From UHGV virus genome UHGV-0112704: DNA of 38,905 nucleotides; one strand, written 5' to 3'. Position 1 is the first letter of the stretch. Every line of letters begins with the position of its first letter. The position numbers and the translations under genes were made by a program. Shown piece by piece: positions 19,389-25,048 of the stretch. This DNA is from a virus. The notes under the pieces are model-generated. The model was not told where the DNA came from, did no database searches, and was given only the letters and a program-made list of their open reading frames with translations.

Positions 19389-19949
19389 ATGAAATACTCA
19401 CAGCAAGAAAAACTACAGATCATGATGCTCAGTGATATTCACCGAGCATTAGAAATTGAAAACTCATTTGATCCTGACCTCATTGACGAAGCAGTGAGCA
19501 CGGATAACTACTGGGCTTTATCCTGGGAATACCCAGGCCTTCAAGATGAAGAAGAGGAGACCCCCTGGGAAGTCCAGCTTTTCGTTGATACCTATGATAT
19601 GTATGACATTCTCCAATACACATACGAACGATTCAGTGCGGAAGACAAAGCAGAGGTTGCCAAATCTATTCGTAATTTCGATGAGAAATTATCACTCACA
19701 TTCCCCGGATTTGACGGTAACAACGAATCAAAGTTTCTTTTGATTGGTAGTTTATTGAAACGAATGGGACGGTTTAGCGGCAAAGACGATCTCACCCGGA
19801 ACTCTCACATGCCCTCTGTTGCAATTTACCAACGTATGCTTGAAGTTTTCCTTCCTGCCAGAGCTAAGAATTGGGTTCACAATGTGGGCATTACTAAACA
19901 TGATTTTATCGATACACTCAACGCGAGAGTGCATCCAGAAAATCGTTAA
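19389..19949 (+). CDS. YfbU-family (UPF0304) protein
   Basis: 186 aa; C-terminal block YQRMLEVFLPARAKNWVHNVGITKHDFIDTLNA resembles E. coli YfbU as I recall it. AGGA before the ATG. Opposite strand to the flanking terminase and lysis genes. Confidence 0.6.
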   Translation: MKYSQQEKLQIMMLSDIHRALEIENSFDPDLIDEAVSTDNYWALSWEYPGLQDEEEETPWEVQLFVDTYDMYDILQYTYERFSAEDKAEVAKSIRNFDEKLSLTFPGFDGNNESKFLLIGSLLKRMGRFSGKDDLTRNSHMPSVAIYQRMLEVFLPARAKNWVHNVGITKHDFIDTLNARVHPENR

Positions 19950-19954
19950 ACGTT

Positions 19955-19976
19955 AATGCCCGCAAATGCGGGCATT
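19955..19976. terminator. perfect hairpin between convergent YfbU and Rz genes
   Basis: AATGCCCGC-AAAT-GCGGGCATT, 9 bp stem. Flanking U-tracts are weak, so terminator function is uncertain. Confidence 0.35.
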
Positions 19977-20502
19977 ATTCATCATGGCGCCTTATTACTT
20001 TGTCGTAGGTGCGCTCACAGGTATTTCCGGCGACATAACGCTCATCAGCCTCTTTTGCGAATTTTCCCGCCAGATCGTCAGCTTCGCTGAGCAACTGGGC
20101 GAGCAATATTCCGGCCTCGGCTTTTGCCTGGCTTGTTGCTGCAATTGCGGAAATTCTGCCTGTTTCACTTGTTGCGAGCTGCCGTTGTATTTCGGCGAGC
20201 TGCTGTTGCAACCCACTGCGAGCACGCTTAGCAGCGTTAGCATCAGCCTGTACTTTTGCCAGTTCTTCATCGGCTTTCTCTCGTTCTTCATCTACGGCCC
20301 GCTGGCGGCGCTGCTCTTCTGCTCTTTCGGTTACTTCACGCTGCAATGTAGTGGTCGCATCAGTAAGGTCACGTTGTGCCCACTGCAATTTCCAGGATGA
20401 GTCCGCCTCCTGATACCCGCGTGAATAACACCAGTACGCGACCGCGCATAACAAAAAAGCCACCAGCAGTATTTCTGCCAGCGGCTTCCAGTAAGCCCTC
20501 AC
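19975..20502 (-). CDS. Rz-like i-spanin
   Basis: Predicted N-terminal membrane anchor (LAEILLVAFLLCAVAYWCY) followed by a charged coiled-coil periplasmic domain. The track ORF begins at 20565 inside the endolysin gene; a GTG at 20502 overlaps the endolysin stop as GTGA and is the likelier start. Confidence 0.65.
   Translation of the reverse strand: MRAYWKPLAEILLVAFLLCAVAYWCYSRGYQEADSSWKLQWAQRDLTDATTTLQREVTERAEEQRRQRAVDEEREKADEELAKVQADANAAKRARSGLQQQLAEIQRQLATSETGRISAIAATSQAKAEAGILLAQLLSEADDLAGKFAKEADERYVAGNTCERTYDKVIRRHDE
19995..20270 (-). CDS. Rz1-like o-spanin lipoprotein, embedded in Rz in the +1 frame
   Basis: Open frame wholly inside Rz; from Met at 20270 it reads MKNWQKYRLMLTLLSVLAVGC: basic n-region, hydrophobic core and a lipobox-like AVGC; proline-containing mature part. 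Confidence 0.5.
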   Translation of the reverse strand: MKNWQKYRLMLTLLSVLAVGCNSSSPKYNGSSQQVKQAEFPQLQQQARQKPRPEYCSPSCSAKLTIWRENSQKRLMSVMSPEIPVSAPTTK

Positions 20503-21047
20503 TGGTCTATCCCCCAGCACGTTAACGCGCTTTCCTGGTCTCGTCGCTCTACCTGACCATAGCACCCATTTTTCTGGCCTTTGGTCAGACGACAGTCGCG
20601 GCCACCATCTTTAATCCACCAGCGAATAGCTTCACATGCGCCTTTACGGTCGCCAGCATTAATTCGCTTATAGAACGTAGACGGGAAACATTTCCCGGGG
20701 CCGATGTTATAGGGGCAGAAAGATGCGATCCCGGCTTTCTGTGGTTCGGTCAGTGGTACTTTGATATTTCGGTCAACCCACGCCAGCGCCTTGTCGCGTT
20801 CAATGGCATTCACCTGGGCACATTTCTCAGCTGACAACTTCATACCCTGAACTACCGGCTTGCCATCAACCATCGTGGCGCCACGGCAAATCGTCCAGAG
20901 CCCACCGCCGTCTCGATACGCCTGCTCGCTATTACCCTCCTTCTCATCCAGAAACTGATCGAGAATAACTGGCGCGGATGCCCCGGCAAGAATCAAACCA
21001 ACGACCGCTGCGCTCAGCTTATTCCTCAGCTTTGGTGGCATACCCAT
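20499..21047 (-). CDS. SAR endolysin (phage lysozyme, P21 R-like)
   Basis: 182 aa; N-terminal signal-anchor-release segment LSAAVVGLILAGASAPVIL; catalytic Glu-Asp-Thr spacing in EGNSEQAYRDGGGLWTICRGAT; RINAGDRKGACEAIRWW block resembles P21 R. Confidence 0.8.
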   Translation of the reverse strand: MGMPPKLRNKLSAAVVGLILAGASAPVILDQFLDEKEGNSEQAYRDGGGLWTICRGATMVDGKPVVQGMKLSAEKCAQVNAIERDKALAWVDRNIKVPLTEPQKAGIASFCPYNIGPGKCFPSTFYKRINAGDRKGACEAIRWWIKDGGRDCRLTKGQKNGCYGQVERRDQESALTCWGIDQ

Positions 21048-21297
21048 TGCGCCGATCCTCCCGTTCTTTCCAGCGGAAATACCAGTTCACTGCACAGGTG
21101 ATTACCGTACATGCGATACCGACAATAATTGCCCAGTCGCTCAGGCTTAACCCTGCAATTCTGTCGGCCAACATCCAGGACACCTCTTTTGCTGTTTTAG
21201 CTGTTTCGGCATATGCCTTCGCTGATACACCGCAGCCGGTCAGCGTGGTTCCTGTTCCATATGAAAGTCTGCTGTAAATGGTGCTCATTCTGGTCAT
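21019..21297 (-). CDS. pinholin (P21 S-like holin), dual-start motif
   Basis: C-terminus NWYFRWKEREDRRNGYA resembles P21 S (NLYFKIREDRRKAARGE). Membrane segment LSLSDWAIIVGIACTVITCAV. The ATG at 21297 is preceded by GGAGGTGA and begins MTRM, i.e. two Met codons separated by a basic residue as in holin/antiholin dual starts. The track ORF starts further upstream at a GTG (21354). Confidence 0.75.
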   Translation of the reverse strand: MTRMSTIYSRLSYGTGTTLTGCGVSAKAYAETAKTAKEVSWMLADRIAGLSLSDWAIIVGIACTVITCAVNWYFRWKEREDRRNGYATKAEE

Positions 21298-21576
21298 AGC
21301 CTCACCTCCGATTTTTCGGATGGCGCTGTGTGTGATGATAAGGTCAGGCTTCACGGGCTGGATTTATCAACAAAGCACGTAGTAATTGATTCCCGTGAGC
21401 CTGAAATGAAAAAGGCCACCAGTTGGCAGCCTCGAAGTGAGTTAACTTGTTTATATAGGTGGAGCGAGAGGTCCTTCTAAAACTTCCGCTTCACCGTTAT
21501 GGCAAATGTCATCACCTATGGTCAGACGCCTGTGGTTGTGATGGCCGTTTAAGATTGAGCCAGCACTGTAGTTGCA

Positions 21577-22368
21577 TCAATTACCCAATGGCTTATGTAG
21601 TTTAAATGGGTTAAGTGATTCTTCATTTTTCAGGCTTATCTTTAAATTCACAGCAATCAGTGAATGATCGTCAGTTGGTCCAGCGCGCTGTATCCGCTTA
21701 AAAAGATTGGTTGAAAAGTTAGTAGCATTCTTCAATGTATTGGGAGAAAAACGCGGGCGGCGTTCCCAGAAGTGATGGGCTCCATCGGACATCAGAAAAA
21801 GAGAAACAACACCGTCATGGTCCATCAAATCTGACAGGGGTAACGAAATATGCTGAAATTTTATTGGCAGGACTTTAGAAATAGCTGCAGTAAGCATGTT
21901 CTTTCCTGGTAAGTCTTCCAATTCCCTTTTCGTATATAACCCATCGTCGAGCAACTCTTGATGCTGTGAGTGATCTTTCGTTAGTAGTTTTAATTTGTTA
22001 TCAATTTTTACATACACCCGAGTATCGCCTACATGGATTACATTAAGTAACTCACCATGTACAACACAGTAGGATAATGTTGTTGCGGCCTTGCGCTTCT
22101 CTGAATCGAACTGAGATAGTTCAGATATTTTGTCTTTTGCACCACTAAGTATCGCATCAGGATCAGAACTGGCTTTCAGTTTATGAGTTGCGACATAGTC
22201 TACTGCAGCTTGCGCTGCTTCTTTAGCACCAGCATAAGACCCGACACCATCAGCAATAGCAAAAATGAAGCCATCATCACATTGTTGCGGGAGTAGTAAC
22301 GCATCTTGGTTTTCACGACCATGATCTTTGGGGCATGAAAATGCACCACAGCTCAACAACTCAATCAT
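21577..22368 (-). CDS. PP2C-family (PPM) Ser/Thr protein phosphatase
   Basis: 263 aa; PPM motifs RENQDA, FAIADGVGSYAGA, HVGDTRVY, LMSDGAHH, TDDHS; start overlaps the kinase stop (ATGA); about 39% GC. Confidence 0.8.
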   Translation of the reverse strand: MIELLSCGAFSCPKDHGRENQDALLLPQQCDDGFIFAIADGVGSYAGAKEAAQAAVDYVATHKLKASSDPDAILSGAKDKISELSQFDSEKRKAATTLSYCVVHGELLNVIHVGDTRVYVKIDNKLKLLTKDHSQHQELLDDGLYTKRELEDLPGKNMLTAAISKVLPIKFQHISLPLSDLMDHDGVVSLFLMSDGAHHFWERRPRFSPNTLKNATNFSTNLFKRIQRAGPTDDHSLIAVNLKISLKNEESLNPFKLHKPLGN

Positions 22369-23147
22369 TTGCCTCTCCTTGCTGCAACAATATCATCAAG
22401 AATGTCTATCATCTCAGTGACAGAATCGTACCTTGAACGAGGCGTAAATGCCGCTGATTTATCGATTAATGTCGTTATACCGTCAATATGAGATAGATTC
22501 ATTTCACTAGTAATAACACCTAGCGCGTAAATATCTGATTTCTGTGTATATACTCCGCGTTTAGCCTCGTCAGACATGTACTTAGCAGTGCCAATACCCA
22601 TTTTTTTGTTTTGAAGTACACCTGACAAAAAATCAGATTGGGCTTTCGAATCCATACTTTTGATTAGGCCGAAATCGGAAATTTTGTAACAGCCTCCTTC
22701 AAACTTGAGGATATTCTCAGGTTTCAGATCCCTGTGAAGCAACCCAGCGTCATGGATATACTTAACGCCTTCAAACACCATCTTCAGGGCTAACAGCTTT
22801 TCATCATCAGAAAGAACGCCCGCTTTTAGTTCGCTTCTTAGGTCTGTTTCTGCCAACTCCATCACAAACCAAGGGTTTTCTATGCTTAAATGATGTATGC
22901 AAATTCTTACAACATGATCATGATTGCACTTGGCTTGGTAGTCGACTTCACGCTTAAACCGACGCTTCCAGTCATCTACACTAAAATATTCATTTAATAA
23001 CGCAGGATTAACTGAAAGAACTTTCCTTGCATACTCACCACAAAGATGGCTATCGGTGTTATATACCTCAACCTTTTCCACACGACCAAAAGCACCAAAA
23101 CCTAGATCTCTCAATGGTTTTATAAGGTAATTACCCCTGGGTTCCAT
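22365..23147 (-). CDS. Hanks-type (eukaryotic-like) Ser/Thr protein kinase, minimal catalytic domain
   Basis: 260 aa; glycine loop LGFGAFGRV; Lys in YARKV; catalytic loop HRDLKPENI; DFG in ISDFGL; subdomain IX-like SDIYALG. About 39% GC against about 51% in the flanking structural genes. Confidence 0.85.
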   Translation of the reverse strand: MEPRGNYLIKPLRDLGFGAFGRVEKVEVYNTDSHLCGEYARKVLSVNPALLNEYFSVDDWKRRFKREVDYQAKCNHDHVVRICIHHLSIENPWFVMELAETDLRSELKAGVLSDDEKLLALKMVFEGVKYIHDAGLLHRDLKPENILKFEGGCYKISDFGLIKSMDSKAQSDFLSGVLQNKKMGIGTAKYMSDEAKRGVYTQKSDIYALGVITSEMNLSHIDGITTLIDKSAAFTPRSRYDSVTEMIDILDDIVAARRGK

Positions 23148-23280
23148 AGCTTACTCACATAAAATTCTCATGAGCAAAATCTACACCCAAAAGAAAAACC
23201 ACACCATATCAATAGGTTTAATTTTCCAAAGAAATCTATCTACACCCTGCAGCAGCTTAAATACACCTCAAAAAAGAAAA

Positions 23281-23310
23281 CCCGCTCATCGGCGGGTTAT
23301 TAATTTTTAT
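23281..23310 (-). terminator. intrinsic terminator (hairpin with U-tracts on both strands)
   Basis: AACCCGC-TCATCG-GCGGGTT at 23281-23300, preceded by AAAAAAGAA (U-rich on the minus transcript) and followed by ATTAATTTTT. Confidence 0.5.
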
Positions 23311-23533
23311 CTATCGCTGCGGGTGTAACTTCGCGAGCATAGCTGAATTCAAGCAATCCCCGCGCAACTTTGCAACCGGAATCGATCAGCTTTTTTATCA
23401 AATACATCACACATTGGTAAGTACAGCATGGCTTCTGCCATCTGCAACCAGACATCAATTCGACTTTCGCAGGTACGTAGGCACCATTCCGGGTGACGAG
23501 TATTCAGTTCTCTTGCCGCCCATCTTCACGAAG

Positions 23534-23561
23534 CCCAGCCATGTGCTGGGTTTTCTTTTTT
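23534..23561 (+). terminator. intrinsic terminator, plus strand
   Basis: CCCAGC-CATGT-GCTGGG followed by TTTTCTTTTTT. No annotated plus-strand gene upstream, which suggests a small transcript. Confidence 0.55.
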
Positions 23562-23640
23562 GAAGCGCACTAATCACCGTAGCCACAGATATTCAGCAAT
23601 GAGTTGGTTGGGTCTGGTTCTTGGTGGTAATGCGCTTTAA

Positions 23641-23664
23641 AAAAGCCAGCGGCGATGCTGGCAA
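23641..23664 (-). terminator. intrinsic terminator, minus strand
   Basis: On the minus transcript GCCAGC-AUCGCC-GCUGGC followed by UUUUUU (plus-strand AAAAAA at 23641-23646). Confidence 0.45.
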
Positions 23665-23875
23665 GATGAGGGTAGTGCGTTGAGCTTTCGCTCTTATGGT
23701 CCTGGTAGGTATTTGAGATAGTGGTGTCTGGTGGCTAATTCCAGATTACGCCTAACATCACGTCCTCTGACTTTACAATTCACCACAACGGAAAGAGCAC
23801 TCACGTCTCGCGTGTCGGCACGAATACCCACCCAGAGAGTCGAACTCTGAAAATGCCCTTACCTGTTGTGCAGAT

Positions 23876-23935
23876 ATAAAAAAGCCCGGAGCCATTATGC
23901 AGATACTAACTATTGTCTGCGAACGGGGCCGGGCT
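23876..23935 (-). terminator. tR'-like compound terminator about 230 nt downstream of the pR'-like promoter
   Basis: On the minus transcript AGCCCGG...CCGGGCU (7 bp) enclosing an inner GCAGA/UCUGC stem, followed by UUUUUUAUAU. Confidence 0.35.
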
Positions 23936-24116
23936 ATTGAATGACAACGCCATCATCCAGATGGCGGCCTGATTACTCAGGTCTTGGAGAACCTCTCAGC
24001 TCTCTACGGTTGGAGTACCAGACGATGCGCCGAAGATACCAACTAGGCGGTTCAGTGGTGAGAGCCGCCTCTTTTGCCTCACCGCCAACGAAGTCAGTAA
24101 CCCATCGTTAGAATCG

Positions 24117-24145
24117 AGATTAAACAAAAATCGCCACTTTGTAAA
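24117..24145 (-). promoter_or_regulatory. pR'-like late promoter just downstream of the Q-like gene
   Basis: On the minus strand TTTACA, 17 bp spacer, TAATCT, located 45-70 nt after the Q-like stop codon. Confidence 0.35.
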
Positions 24146-24187
24146 GTGTAGTTTTCTAGATAAATCCTATTTCATAGAAAACATTCA

Positions 24188-25048
24188 CTATCGCGTGACT
24201 TTGTTCAACATCTGGTTTGCGTACTCTTCCTGCTTGATGCACTCACCTACCAGACTTTCGAAAAAATCCTTGTAAGACCTGCGCCACGTGGTTTCAGGTA
24301 TATCCATCACCGTTACGCAGATGTATTTACGGACGCTATCAGGTAGCAATCTGGCATAACCACGCCCATTGCAGCGCGTACAGGTTTTATATGCAGGAAC
24401 GCCGCGCTGTAGAATAGTTTTCTCTTTGTCTAATACTGTTCCTTTGCCATTGCACTGGCATGCGTTGGTCAGAGCACCCTTCCCTTTGCATTTGTGGCAA
24501 AGCACCTTAACCATCTCTCTTTTTTCGCTAAGGTGTGGCTGTCCGATATGCTTCATCGTCATTACTTCAGCTTCGACAAACTTATTTCCATGGCAGCAGT
24601 CGCACGTTCTGGTGCTGGCCGCACTCCGGGAGTAATCAGCAAAGGCGAAAGTTGCGAGAACTTGCATTACCTTTGGCTTAACATCACTCTCAAGCTTGCG
24701 TAAGGCAGCAACCTTATCGCAGTGCTCAATTGCATATTTTGTCAGCAAATCAATCGCTCGCTCGCGATCGTAATCACTGATATCCATCTTTCCTAGGAAT
24801 GCACTGAACCCGAGAGCAGCACGGCTCTGTGTCATTCCGATCGCCGCCATAATGTCAGTGCCGGTTAATGAGTCAGATGCTGTCGCGCGTGGAGCGTCGC
24901 TAATCATCGTTGACTTCGCGAAGTGGTATTTCACTGTGTTTTCAAGGTTCATAGCGCTTCTCCAGCATAAGTTTTCACGTAATTCTTCAGTATCCGGTAG
25001 TCCGTTAGCACAGAGCCGGGAAAGTGGTATAAGCGCAATCGTTGCCAA
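24188..25048 (-). CDS. late-gene antiterminator Q-like protein with Cys-rich zinc-finger repeats
   Basis: 286 aa ORF immediately upstream of the promoter/terminator leader and the lysis genes; four CxxC-type clusters (CDCCHGNK, CHKCKGKG, CQCNGKG, CTRCNGRG); directly downstream of NinG as in lambdoid phages. Confidence 0.55.
   Translation of the reverse strand: MATIALIPLSRLCANGLPDTEELRENLCWRSAMNLENTVKYHFAKSTMISDAPRATASDSLTGTDIMAAIGMTQSRAALGFSAFLGKMDISDYDRERAIDLLTKYAIEHCDKVAALRKLESDVKPKVMQVLATFAFADYSRSAASTRTCDCCHGNKFVEAEVMTMKHIGQPHLSEKREMVKVLCHKCKGKGALTNACQCNGKGTVLDKEKTILQRGVPAYKTCTRCNGRGYARLLPDSVRKYICVTVMDIPETTWRRSYKDFFESLVGECIKQEEYANQMLNKVTR

Follow-up and report, generated by a model that had tools for sequence, protein, structure and literature searches.

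The window, a 38,905-nucleotide stretch representing the virus genome UHGV-0112704, a lambda-like prophage, carries on its minus strand a Hanks-type protein kinase gene and a PP2C phosphatase gene that form an obligate, translationally coupled pair. Together they make up a self-contained, horizontally mobile two-gene unit that travels as accessory cargo of temperate phages and is intact in the window copy. We propose, with about an even chance of being right, that the pair acts as a minimal exclusion module of type VII-like design, in which the kinase would be the toxin and the phosphatase its antidote.

The kinase gene (22365..23147, minus strand, 783 bp) is minimal, with an open reading frame of 260 residues of which 12-217 match Pfam Pkinase (E = 2.9e-32; 112.6 bits against a cut-off of 31.7). 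It also matches PHROG 2361, annotated 'serine-threonine kinase' (E = 7e-70), and these scores assign the protein to the Hanks-type (eukaryote-like) Ser/Thr protein kinase superfamily, the catalytic loop HRDLKPEN being of the Ser/Thr type. In Pfam searches it is a bare catalytic domain, with sensor and accessory domains absent. The kinase signature is complete, comprising GxGxxG, the VAIK lysine, the αC glutamate, HRDxKxxN, DFG, the APE glutamate, the subdomain IX aspartate and the subdomain XI arginine. Among 28 family kinases G16/G18/G21, K42, E67, H138-R139-D140, K142, N145, D158-F159-G160, D205 and R239 are invariant, and E194, which here sits in SDE and not APE, is nearly so. The AlphaFold2 model (pLDDT 88.4, pTM 0.87) shows the canonical two-lobed kinase fold, in which the activation loop (167-183) is disordered, and Foldseek matches it with probability 1.0 to many kinases, PknB included.

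The adjoining PP2C/PPM phosphatase gene (21577..22368, minus strand) encodes 263 residues, of which approximately 1-244 form the catalytic domain. The assignment to the PPM/PP2C metal-dependent phosphatases is indicated by matches to PP2C_2 (PF13672; E = 5.7e-15, 55.9 bits, cut-off 24), PF00481 (22.6 bits, cut-off 20.3), the NCBIfam Stp1/IreP PP2C model (E = 1.1e-24) and phrog_5650 (E = 1.6e-45). Residues of the metal site, N20-Q-D22, D40-G41-V-G43, G114-D115-T-R117, S194-D195-G196 and D233-D234, are invariant in 34 family PP2Cs, and the first three of these blocks align to tPphA and Stp1; the family in addition carries an invariant block of its own, FWExRPRFSxNT. The AlphaFold2 model (pLDDT 91.5, low from about residue 245) is a β-sandwich whose best Foldseek matches are PstP, tPphA and Stp1, at target-normalised TM-scores of 0.78-0.82. 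The 33 aligned homologues are 234-256 residues long, against 263 here, and the C-terminal ~18 residues (about 245-263) are unique to the window, lying past the end of the conserved cassette and beyond the last strand of the modelled fold. An identical 263-residue protein (P0121) is present in ENA, in a cluster of 18 member sequences. Fold searches with the two models returned generic kinase and bacterial PP2C matches alone, and no unexpected fold.

Both enzymes therefore look catalytically competent, as the sequence-only reading had judged from the hallmarks of an active Hanks-type kinase and the PPM metal-binding motifs. Both domains score above the curated Pfam cut-offs, each protein modelled singly gives a confident and canonical structure, and no catalytic lysine, aspartate or metal-binding residue is missing from either.

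At the coupling junction (22365..22379, minus strand) an AGGAG Shine-Dalgarno sequence (22379..22375) lies inside the 3' end of the kinase gene, 6 nt ahead of the PP2C ATG, and is followed by the ATGA start/stop overlap (22368..22365); the sequence-only reading had already described this overlap, and it and the two reading frames agree with that description to the nucleotide. The arrangement is a property of the family. Of the 62 related loci in which both genes can be delimited, 47 have a 4-nt overlap, down to about 35% protein identity, and in every one of the 63 viral or phage loci with a family kinase the PP2C gene lies directly 3' of it on the same strand. The divergences of the two proteins are tightly correlated (r = 0.84, a value reached in none of 2000 permutations), and no third gene is conserved with the pair across the family loci. 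Where the pair has decayed it is the kinase that is broken and the PP2C that is intact, by a stop at W93 in one locus (L014) and by truncation in another (L060); the single apparent converse case consists of two homopolymer frameshifts, which may be sequencing errors. This pattern, from a small sample, fits a toxin and its antidote.

Comparison by blastn with the closest relatives, which reside in different phage backbones, delimits a conserved mobile cassette (21634..23237, minus strand) whose upstream limit is about 85 nt ahead of the kinase ATG and whose downstream limit falls within the 3' end of the PP2C gene. Window positions 23237->21640 align at 80% to a locus of Pectobacterium versatile (L084) and 23226->21634 at 79% to a second relative (L004), with non-homologous flanks in both. 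The upstream junction is marked by a terminator-like hairpin with a T-run, AACCCGCCGATGAGCGGGTT (23269..23298, minus strand), which comes after the remnant of a DUF1133 gene and directly upstream of the cassette, whose homology starts just downstream of it. A further terminator-like hairpin with a T-run (21412..21433, minus strand), between the PP2C and holin genes, is part of the phage backbone and not of the cassette: it falls inside a block (21530->20499) shared at 88.5% identity with L008, a related phage whose corresponding slot has no kinase pair. Both L084 and L004 have their own hairpin and T-run directly after the PP2C stop, and across the family such a hairpin follows that stop within 150 nt in 26 of 36 representative loci, whereas random windows have one in 10% of cases. 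The window copy lacks this terminator, which was lost at the junction inside the PP2C gene where the PP2C tail was replaced, and the cassette here stands inside the late operon, behind several terminators.

The conserved leader of the cassette (23148..23237, minus strand) contains a -10-like TAGATT (23183..23178), preceded by a weak -35-like TGGTGT (23206..23201) at 17-nt spacing and by TTGATA (23212..23207) at 23-nt spacing, and a weak hairpin whose 3' arm covers the GAG right before the AUG. Fifteen diverse cassette leaders, taken from three different slots, can be aligned and have invariant G-T-A-n-n-n-T and T-n-G boxes, making the leader a candidate for the cassette's own promoter and for an element of translational control. 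A scan of the leader against the sigma-70 consensus found no promoter, and over 34 leaders the best-match promoter scores equal those of shuffled sequences (7.65 vs 7.57), so that only the positional conservation argues for an own promoter. Occlusion of the ribosome-binding site by the hairpin is not significant across the family (z-scores -1.2 to -2.8).

The upstream neighbour is a Q-type late antiterminator gene (24188..25048, minus strand; PF03589 Antiterm, E = 8e-44). Its tblastn matches begin at residues 32-35, and because homologues align from about residue 32 its true start is likely to be near 24952. The stretch between Q and the kinase gene, approximately 1 kb long, is non-coding or remnant sequence. 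Downstream, on the same strand, are a holin gene (21019..21354; PF16080/PF04971) followed by lysozyme (20499..21047; PF00959) and Rz-like spanin (19975..20565; PF10721) genes. The pair has a GC content of 0.408, against 0.506 in the rest of the window, and the same holds in the wider family, whose cassettes are below their flanks in GC in all 35 loci compared (mean gap 10 points). As the related phage L008 shares both the Q region and the holin-lysozyme block with the window and has no kinase pair between them, the cassette separates genes that are neighbours in that phage and differs from them in base composition, as is characteristic of a moron. The location between a Q-like antiterminator and a holin, the marked AT-richness of the pair and its nature as cargo of foreign composition had all been anticipated by the sequence-only reading and are borne out. 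Stx phages carry a tRNA cluster in the Q-stx region; a search for tRNAs and Rfam families found none anywhere in the window, so a cluster of that type is absent here.

We surveyed the neighbourhoods of homologues in IMG/VR, which is biased to viral contigs, and through eight look-ups of individual proteins. Lambdoid phages carry the cassette in at least four positions, namely between Q and holin, between Rz and terminase, downstream of cI (the position of rexAB in lambda), and antisense upstream of Q, in backbones that differ in Q family and lysis genes and have two types of terminase. In about 18 of the 36 family clusters the pair adjoins the lysis cassette, be it on one side or the other, and the Q-to-lysis slot is used by at least five clusters besides that of Cronobacter phage phiES15. 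In four clusters a CI-type repressor gene is directly followed on the same strand by the kinase and PP2C genes, divergent from Cro/YdaS-YdaT; of the two such loci scanned for terminators, neither has one separating repressor from kinase, and both have a strong one after PP2C. The cassette is also present at the end of an inovirus-like (filamentous) Vibrio prophage and in chromosomal islets, where it adjoins a SymE toxin and a NACHT/STAND NTPase in Xanthomonas and MazE-PIN in Actinobacillus, lies beside dusB-fis in Pectobacterium, and occupies a small islet in Aeromonas. Homologues are thus found in prophage slots and islets, and are not limited to genes of the chromosome with housekeeping roles. 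The nearest relatives of the window cassette are in Pectobacterium and Klebsiella. Its DNA has no match in 5,426 complete E. coli genomes and 50,697 phage records except a 123-nt DUF1133 remnant; the family pair of Escherichia phage Flotzy is likewise absent from complete E. coli genomes by megablast, and no close DNA relative of the remainder of the window was found among deposited phages. Given the occurrences beside cI, in antisense orientation, in a filamentous prophage and in islets, the core function of the cassette cannot depend on Q-driven late expression.

Of the readings put forward from sequence, a phosphorylation-based defence in which the phosphatase provides a reset is the one best supported by this comparative context. 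In such an exclusion module a single mRNA would yield both enzymes, in linked quantities. As long as the lysogen is undisturbed, the PP2C would keep reversing the phosphorylation carried out by the kinase, including that of the kinase's own activation loop, and the net phosphorylation of cell proteins would as a result stay low. An infecting phage or other insult would tip the balance, possibly through inhibition or titration of the PP2C, activation of the kinase, or a stop in synthesis of the less stable partner. The freed kinase would then phosphorylate host and/or phage proteins and block growth of the phage or the cell, the outcome being abortive infection or superinfection exclusion, and the phosphatase would render the kinase-induced state reversible. 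Being downstream of Q, the window cassette would, after induction, also be part of the late operon's transcript. We infer the enzymatic activity, the toxicity, the antidote role, the trigger, the targets and expression in the lysogen. The proposal draws on the use by the cassette of slots for exclusion or lysogenic-conversion genes, on its occurrence without a lambdoid lytic programme in the inovirus-like prophage and the islets, and, by analogy, on the precedents of KKP, 933W Stk, Stk2 and a kinase from an E. coli defence screen. The lack of a sensor domain in the kinase counts against it, as does a window copy that is without its own terminator and has a promoter represented only by a conserved box. 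A more specific form of the proposal is tentative, and we hold it to be somewhat doubtful: the bare kinase and PP2C would constitute a minimal immune or toxin-antidote switch, distinct from KKP, in which the PP2C is the sensor inactivated by a protein of the invading phage, and may be a substrate of the kinase through FWExRPRFSxNT, the 1.6-kb unit being exchanged among lambdoid phages, filamentous phages and islets of Gammaproteobacteria.

An alternative that we think rather unlikely is that the pair is a regulatory module between prophage and host, whose balance tunes phosphorylation of a host regulator, for example a nucleoid-associated silencer, and so controls prophage maintenance or induction or the physiology of the lysogen (lysogenic conversion), with the cell neither killed nor arrested. 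It has a precedent in KKP, which controls Pf lysogeny through phosphorylation of MvaU (PMC11341870), and another in Shewanella, where phosphorylation of H-NS is reported to govern the silencing of prophage CP4So (PMC8034616). The position next to the cI repressor in four clusters would suit such a role, and the cassette is AT-rich, as is typical of H-NS-bound DNA, which hints at a link to H-NS. Pairs in phage-free islets beside toxin-antitoxin or STAND-NTPase genes speak against it, there being no prophage there to regulate, and regulation would in any case not exclude an exclusion module, since the two roles coexist in KKP. It is distinctly unlikely that the pair serves a late lytic function, expressed by Q antitermination, in which the kinase would reshape host proteins or set the timing of lysis, a host takeover of the T7 gp0.7 style, with the phosphatase limiting the damage. 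The window copy does lie on the late strand in the Q-holin slot, past terminators that only Q-modified polymerase should pass, and around half of the family clusters flank lysis genes; but the Q-S and Rz-terminase intervals are general cargo hot spots, co-translated stoichiometric antagonists would be a poor design for takeover, and most cassettes have a terminator of their own, for which a purely late gene has no need. It also sits badly with the occurrences in a repressor operon, on the strand antisense to late genes, within an inovirus and in islets that hold no phage, and the late host-takeover alternative in the sequence-only reading accordingly fares poorly.

Purely selfish addiction, in which the pair would stabilise its carrier by post-segregational arrest with no anti-phage benefit, is very unlikely in our view. 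Tight coupling of two genes, mobility, decay that begins with the kinase and the presence of other toxin-antitoxin pairs as neighbours are all what it would predict, yet the classical argument for addiction has little force where prophages and islets are integrated in the chromosome, and many of the toxin-antitoxin modules from the same prophage slots have proved to be anti-phage. KKP is an example (PMC11341870). Most improbable of all is that the window copy is a decaying, non-functional remnant. That the downstream junction falls within the PP2C gene, with loss of the native C-terminus and own terminator, and that a gene remnant and extra terminators lie upstream would be compatible with decay, but both reading frames are full length and retain all invariant catalytic residues, the replaced PP2C tail starts past the last strand of the fold, and the identical PP2C is represented in the ENA cluster of 18. 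A role as secreted effectors was set aside on context alone, the cassette occupying prophage slots and small islets with no secretion-system genes recognised nearby.

Should the pair prove to be a working toxin/antidote or exclusion switch, no simpler one based on phosphorylation would be known: it consists of two small genes with no sensor domains that are easily cloned and mutated. Direct tests could then address by what means the balance of a bare kinase and phosphatase detects infection, what proteins of bacterium or phage are targeted to lethal or protective effect, and why temperate phages put such modules in the cargo positions of rexAB, Stx and bor. Catalogues of defence systems would gain a new recognisable family, present in Enterobacterales, Vibrio, Aeromonas, Xanthomonas and Pasteurellaceae. 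If a physiological regulator instead, the pair would give prophages a hitherto unrecognised way of rewiring the signalling of their host.

The closest counterparts in named phages are gp21/gp22 of phiES15, which form the same pair between Q and lysis genes (73%/58% identity) and are annotated in the record as a serine-threonine kinase and a PP2C-domain protein, and CDS 8/9 of Flotzy (about 52%/53%), located between the spanin and small terminase genes. Both pairs have the gene order and 4-nt overlap of the window pair, and their PP2Cs are of the standard length of about 246 residues where that of the window has 263. A literature search for functional study of either pair returned none, both being known from annotation. 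The sequence-only reading had recognised no minimal kinase with a cognate PP2C at this position, which was overstated given the phiES15 pair and the further clusters in the same slot.

Among characterised systems the nearest is KKP (PfpC-PfkB-PfkA), a prophage-borne module of kinases and PP2C found in Pf6, P2, P4 and Mu-like prophages. It is a tripartite phosphorylation-based toxin-antitoxin and defence system, set off when a phage protein inhibits the phosphatase (Guo et al. 2024, PMC11341870). In this respect too the earlier suggestion of novelty was overstated, a prophage kinase/PP2C module for toxin-antitoxin function and defence being already known. Our literature searches for a two-gene module of this kind in phages found KKP only. 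As in KKP, a PP2C of PF13672 is combined with a Hanks-type Ser/Thr kinase on a prophage, the Vibrio family member likewise uses the end of a filamentous prophage, and the model proposed here, of a toxic kinase neutralised by a phosphatase, is by analogy the same. KKP differs in having the order PP2C, kinase, kinase, with genes of 900-1300 bp each, and its toxicity needs both PfkA, which has a cold-shock domain, and PfkB, which has an FHA domain (PMC11341870). The window pair has two genes, kinase then PP2C, with a single 783-bp kinase in which Pfam recognises Pkinase only and neither CSD nor FHA domain, and its family is carried mainly by lambdoid phages. By its architecture the pair falls outside KKP as defined, and may be either a reduced form of it or a lineage of its own. 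A relaxed tblastn search of phage records with the PP2C (E <= 1) found no P2-like or Pf-like phage.

Other kinases provide precedents for exclusion. Stk of prophage 933W, described as a tyrosine kinase, excludes HK97 (PMC3681748), and the anti-phage kinases also include Stk2 and a Ser/Thr kinase that came out of a defence screen in E. coli (PMC9519451). The window kinase resembles 933W Stk, staphylococcal Stk2 and PD-T4-6, which exclude phages when active upon infection, in being eukaryote-like, and 933W Stk also in being encoded by a prophage, but those three are larger, have extra regions and lack a cognate phosphatase gene. The PADLOC models for PD-T4-6 and Stk2 match its kinase domain, coverage being partial (positions 153-357 of 500 for Stk2, and 53-249 of 659 for mad6); membership of PD-T4-6, Stk2 or MADS was rejected, as these matches are to a generic kinase domain and no better than Pfam Pkinase. 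The PP2C matches the candidate defence model PDC-M21C weakly (E = 1e-4). No Stx-phage record is among the tblastn matches at E <= 1e-5.

A Hanks kinase and a PP2C in one operon are also the arrangement of the housekeeping Stk1/Stp1 group (PknB/PstP, PrkC/PrpC), to which the closest solved structures belong by sequence and fold. The kinases of that group are membrane-bound and carry sensor domains, PASTA or other; they are encoded in the chromosomal core and usually preceded by the phosphatase gene, in all of which the window pair differs; its scores against the corresponding models are far below the cut-offs (NF033483, 100 bits vs 450; NF033484, 87 bits vs 230), and a housekeeping identity was rejected. 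In position, foreign composition and the usual possession of its own terminator the cassette is instead like the morons of the lambda rexAB, bor, lom and Stx type, whose proteins are unrelated to the kinase and PP2C, its own promoter being a candidate. The likeness extends to gene order, as the clusters in which repressor, kinase and PP2C follow one another reproduce the cI-rexA-rexB arrangement of lambda.

The two ORFs proposed from the sequence alone are both present on the minus strand exactly where they had been placed, a kinase ORF of 260 residues (22365..23147) and a PP2C phosphatase ORF of 263 residues (21577..22368), the kinase stop overlapping the phosphatase start in an ATGA (22368..22365) and an AGGAG lying 6 nt 5' of the phosphatase ATG. 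The kinase matches Pfam Pkinase at 112.6 bits (cut-off 31.7) and the phosphatase PP2C_2 (PF13672) at 55.9 bits (cut-off 24), with PHROGs assignments to phrog_2361 ('serine-threonine kinase') and phrog_5650, respectively. The kinase hallmarks and PPM metal motifs claimed earlier are complete. Across 28 aligned homologues all residues of the Hanks signature are invariant or nearly so, namely the glycine loop G16-x-G18-x-x-G21, K42, E67, a Ser/Thr-type catalytic loop (H138-R-D140-L-K142-P-E-N145), D158-F-G160, E194, D205 and R239. The phosphatase motifs N20/D22, D40-G41-x-G43, G114-D115-x-R117, S194-D195-G196 and D233-D234 are invariant in 34 homologues, the first three blocks aligning with the matching motifs of tPphA and Stp1. 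AlphaFold gives confident models (pLDDT 88.4 for the kinase, 91.5 for the PP2C), one showing the canonical bilobal kinase fold, its activation loop disordered, and the other a PP2C fold with a target-normalised TM-score of about 0.8 against PstP, tPphA and Stp1. The two proteins are a genuine Hanks kinase and PPM phosphatase. Between the SDG and DD metal motifs the PP2C family alignment contains an invariant, family-specific stretch, FWExRPRFSxNT (residues 200-211; window ~21735..21770, minus strand), whose basic R-x-R-x-S context allows the speculation that it is an interaction/docking or phosphorylation site.

The pair belongs to a tight, strictly paired family. In the protein databases the kinase is 90% identical to a Pectobacterium versatile protein and the PP2C 80% identical to one from Klebsiella pneumoniae, with remoter relatives in Enterobacterales, Vibrio, Aeromonas, Xanthomonas, Acinetobacter and Pasteurellaceae. 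Of the deposited phages, two carry both genes by tblastn, Cronobacter phage phiES15 (73% and 58% identity, between Q and the lysis genes) and Escherichia phage Flotzy (~52% and 53%, between the spanin and small terminase genes). The family-specific PP2C clade is small, comprising ~25 clusters (50% identity) above ~170 bits among 45,809 PP2C-like matches when 1.84 billion representative proteins were searched with a profile. Scanning IMG/VR with the kinase alignment yielded 62 loci, which with a Buttiauxella locus make 63 distinct loci, and in all 63 a PP2C gene lies immediately 3' of the kinase on the same strand. The 4-nt overlap is kept, down to ~35% identity, in 47 of the 62 records in which both genes could be delimited (phiES15 included twice). 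Pairwise divergences of kinase and PP2C are correlated (r = 0.84; none of 2000 permutations as high), so the two genes move together; neighbour scans of the family loci found no conserved third gene. Two more distant IMG/VR relatives, L062 and L063, encode a PP2C behind a longer, C-terminally extended kinase of 438-443 residues and may represent a sensor-bearing version. Distant homologues (23-33% identity) are also adjacent, in the reversed order PP2C then kinase, in four uncultured gut phage contigs from human faeces (MT835987, MT837907, MT836046 and MT835527), so kinase/phosphatase pairs may be phage cargo well beyond Proteobacteria.

As described earlier, the window's pair is flanked upstream by a Q antiterminator (PF03589) and downstream by the holin, followed by lysozyme, an Rz-like spanin and the small and large terminases. 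Assigning slots to 36 clusters (90% identity) with a reference-protein panel and Pfam scans showed that the family is not limited to the Q-to-lysis position. That arrangement is seen in five clusters (phiES15 and four others) and in the separately fetched P. versatile locus, L084; ~11 of the 36 place the pair between holin-lysozyme-Rz and terminase, at least three carry it antisense upstream of Q, and the clusters outside the four slot groups are unclassified. In the remaining group (4 of 36) it follows a CI-type repressor on the same strand, with Cro-like YdaS and YdaT running divergently, the arrangement of cI-rexA-rexB in lambda; two such loci that were scanned have a strong terminator directly after the PP2C and none between repressor and kinase. 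Outside lambdoid phages, Vibrio vulnificus (L090, 7001-8537) carries the pair at the accessory end of an inovirus-like prophage, behind Rep_trans, DUF1293 and Zot genes, echoing the position of the PfpC-PfkB-PfkA kinase-kinase-phosphatase module (KKP) in filamentous phage Pf6. In Xanthomonas arboricola (L089, 5148-10646) the pair is flanked, in a chromosomal islet, by genes for a SymE toxin and a 654-residue NACHT/STAND NTPase, which looks like a defence-island context. Other copies lie 3' of rpoBC adjoining MazE-PIN (Actinobacillus), beside dusB-fis (Pectobacterium) and in an islet with a DUF4760 gene (Aeromonas). The module therefore works without any lambdoid late programme.

The pair forms a mobile cassette whose edges are visible in the window. 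The reported AT-richness holds (GC 0.408 against 0.506 for the remainder of the window) and is general, all 35 loci with enough flank being AT-richer than their surroundings by a mean of 10 points. DNA homology to the two closest relatives, on different backbones, runs from 23237/23226 to 21640/21634, so that the cassette begins ~85 nt 5' of the kinase ATG and ends within the 3' end of the PP2C gene. Because this downstream edge falls inside the gene, the PP2C is longer (263 residues) than its aligned homologues (234-256); its tail (residues ~245-263; 21577..21634, minus strand) is junction-derived, window-only and low-confidence in the model. ENA assemblies nevertheless contain the identical 263-residue protein (P0121; cluster with 18 members). 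The same two relatives, L084 and L004, have their own hairpin and T-run directly 3' of the PP2C stop, absent from the window's copy, where the next terminator-like hairpin (21433..21412) falls in a block 88.5% identical to L008. This related phage has the Q-region and holin-lysozyme blocks in common with the window, lacks the pair in that slot and carries another subtype, 54% identical, 3' of its Rz gene. A terminator-like hairpin follows the PP2C stop within 150 nt in 26 of the 36 representative loci, compared with 10% of random windows. At its upstream edge the window's cassette meets a hairpin and T-run (23298..23279) at the 3' end of a DUF1133-family gene remnant (~23277..23493, minus strand, including a 52-residue ORF at 23300..23458), which over 123 nt matches E. 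coli genes labelled 'DUF1133 family protein' at 96.8% identity and is ~70% identical to compared locus L019; it is a scar of earlier rearrangement at this slot. In the closest relative, from P. versatile, Q belongs to another family (PF06530), there is an additional Endonuclease_NS gene and the holins differ, and one Enterobacter kinase adjoins two unrelated terminase types.

Near the lysis genes, an AT-rich 186-residue ORF with a YfbU domain (PF03887, E = 5.5e-12; 19389..19949, plus strand) lies between, and opposite to, the Rz-like and small terminase genes, a slot held by the kinase-PP2C pair in related phages; another locus, L017, has a YfbU-like ORF just 3' of its own pair, and the window's ORF is probably another piece of cargo. 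A 98-residue ORF (19995..20291, minus strand) lies out of frame inside the Rz-like (DUF2514) gene (19975..20565), and its lipoprotein-like N-terminus (…LLSVLAVGC…) makes it the probable o-spanin (Rz1) partner.

The 1.04 kb from the Q stop (24188) to the kinase ATG (23147), at 23148..24187 on the minus strand, contain no long ORFs, and scans there found no tRNA or Rfam match. Terminator-like hairpins occur on the minus strand at 23966..23948, 23662..23645 and 23298..23279, with a long imperfect hairpin and T6 around 23935..23880, and the late promoter, with its terminator(s), probably lies in this gap. In lambdoid phages, Q-modified polymerase reads through terminators after induction; here it should pass those of the gap and transcribe the pair with the lysis genes. 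Fifteen aligned leaders from three different slots have in common an invariant G-T-A-n-n-n-T box (in the window TAGATT, 23183..23178) and, 17 nt upstream, a T-n-G box. Such a pattern would be expected of a cassette-borne sigma-70 promoter that might also express the pair in the lysogen, a candidate with weak hexamers; a consensus scan of the leader reports no promoter and best-match scores equal those of shuffles. The closest relatives have a small hairpin over the GAG before the kinase AUG, which is not significant family-wide.

The most economical reading is that this minimal kinase/phosphatase antagonist pair would act as a toxin/antidote-type exclusion or abortive-infection switch, with activity, toxicity, trigger and targets all predicted. 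Support for this reading comes from the pairing, obligate and coupled, the mobility, the cargo slots chosen, especially the rexAB-like position, the nearby toxin-antitoxin and STAND genes, and published precedents. KKP, a prophage PP2C (PF13672) with two kinases, is a tripartite phospho toxin-antitoxin system that defends against lytic phages once a phage protein inhibits the phosphatase (PMC11341870), 933W Stk excludes HK97 (PMC3681748), and other precedents are Stk2 and a Ser/Thr kinase recovered in an E. coli selection (PMC9519451). A small asymmetry in decay points the same way, two loci having a broken kinase and an intact PP2C against one converse case that a homopolymer sequencing error may explain. 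As the kinase lacks a sensor domain, the trigger would have to be sensed by the phosphatase or the kinase core, or through differences in stability or synthesis.

The phosphorylation-based defence module of the sequence-only reading thus agrees with pairing, mobility, slots and precedents, its function being predicted. The late host-takeover pair offered as its alternative, or any late lytic function, is disfavoured by the non-late and phage-free contexts, and the ORFs and catalytic residues, all intact, speak against a dead copy in the window. A regulator of physiology or lysogeny would agree with the second role of KKP, which also tunes lysogeny (PMC11341870); a purely selfish addiction module is a further rival to the exclusion switch.

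The pair is distinct from the systems it most resembles. KKP by definition comprises three genes, a PP2C followed by two kinases, with CSD and FHA fusions, and the two-gene form falls outside it. Housekeeping Stk1/Stp1 is likewise rejected, as the Stk1-like and Stp1-like NCBIfam domains are matched with scores far below equivalog cut-offs, and the kinase is not a specific relative of PD-T4-6, Stk2 or 933W Stk. The sequence-only reading had not recognised such a pair at the Q-to-lysis position, but phiES15 was already annotated with one there ('serine-threonine kinase' and 'protein phosphatase 2C domain-containing protein'), and annotations of the two genes in phage genomes go back to that record; no functional study of the two-gene form emerged from literature searches. 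Prophage-borne kinase/phosphatase modules are already known, and neither the concept nor this gene pair is new; the pair is a widespread, compact candidate that lends itself to experiment.
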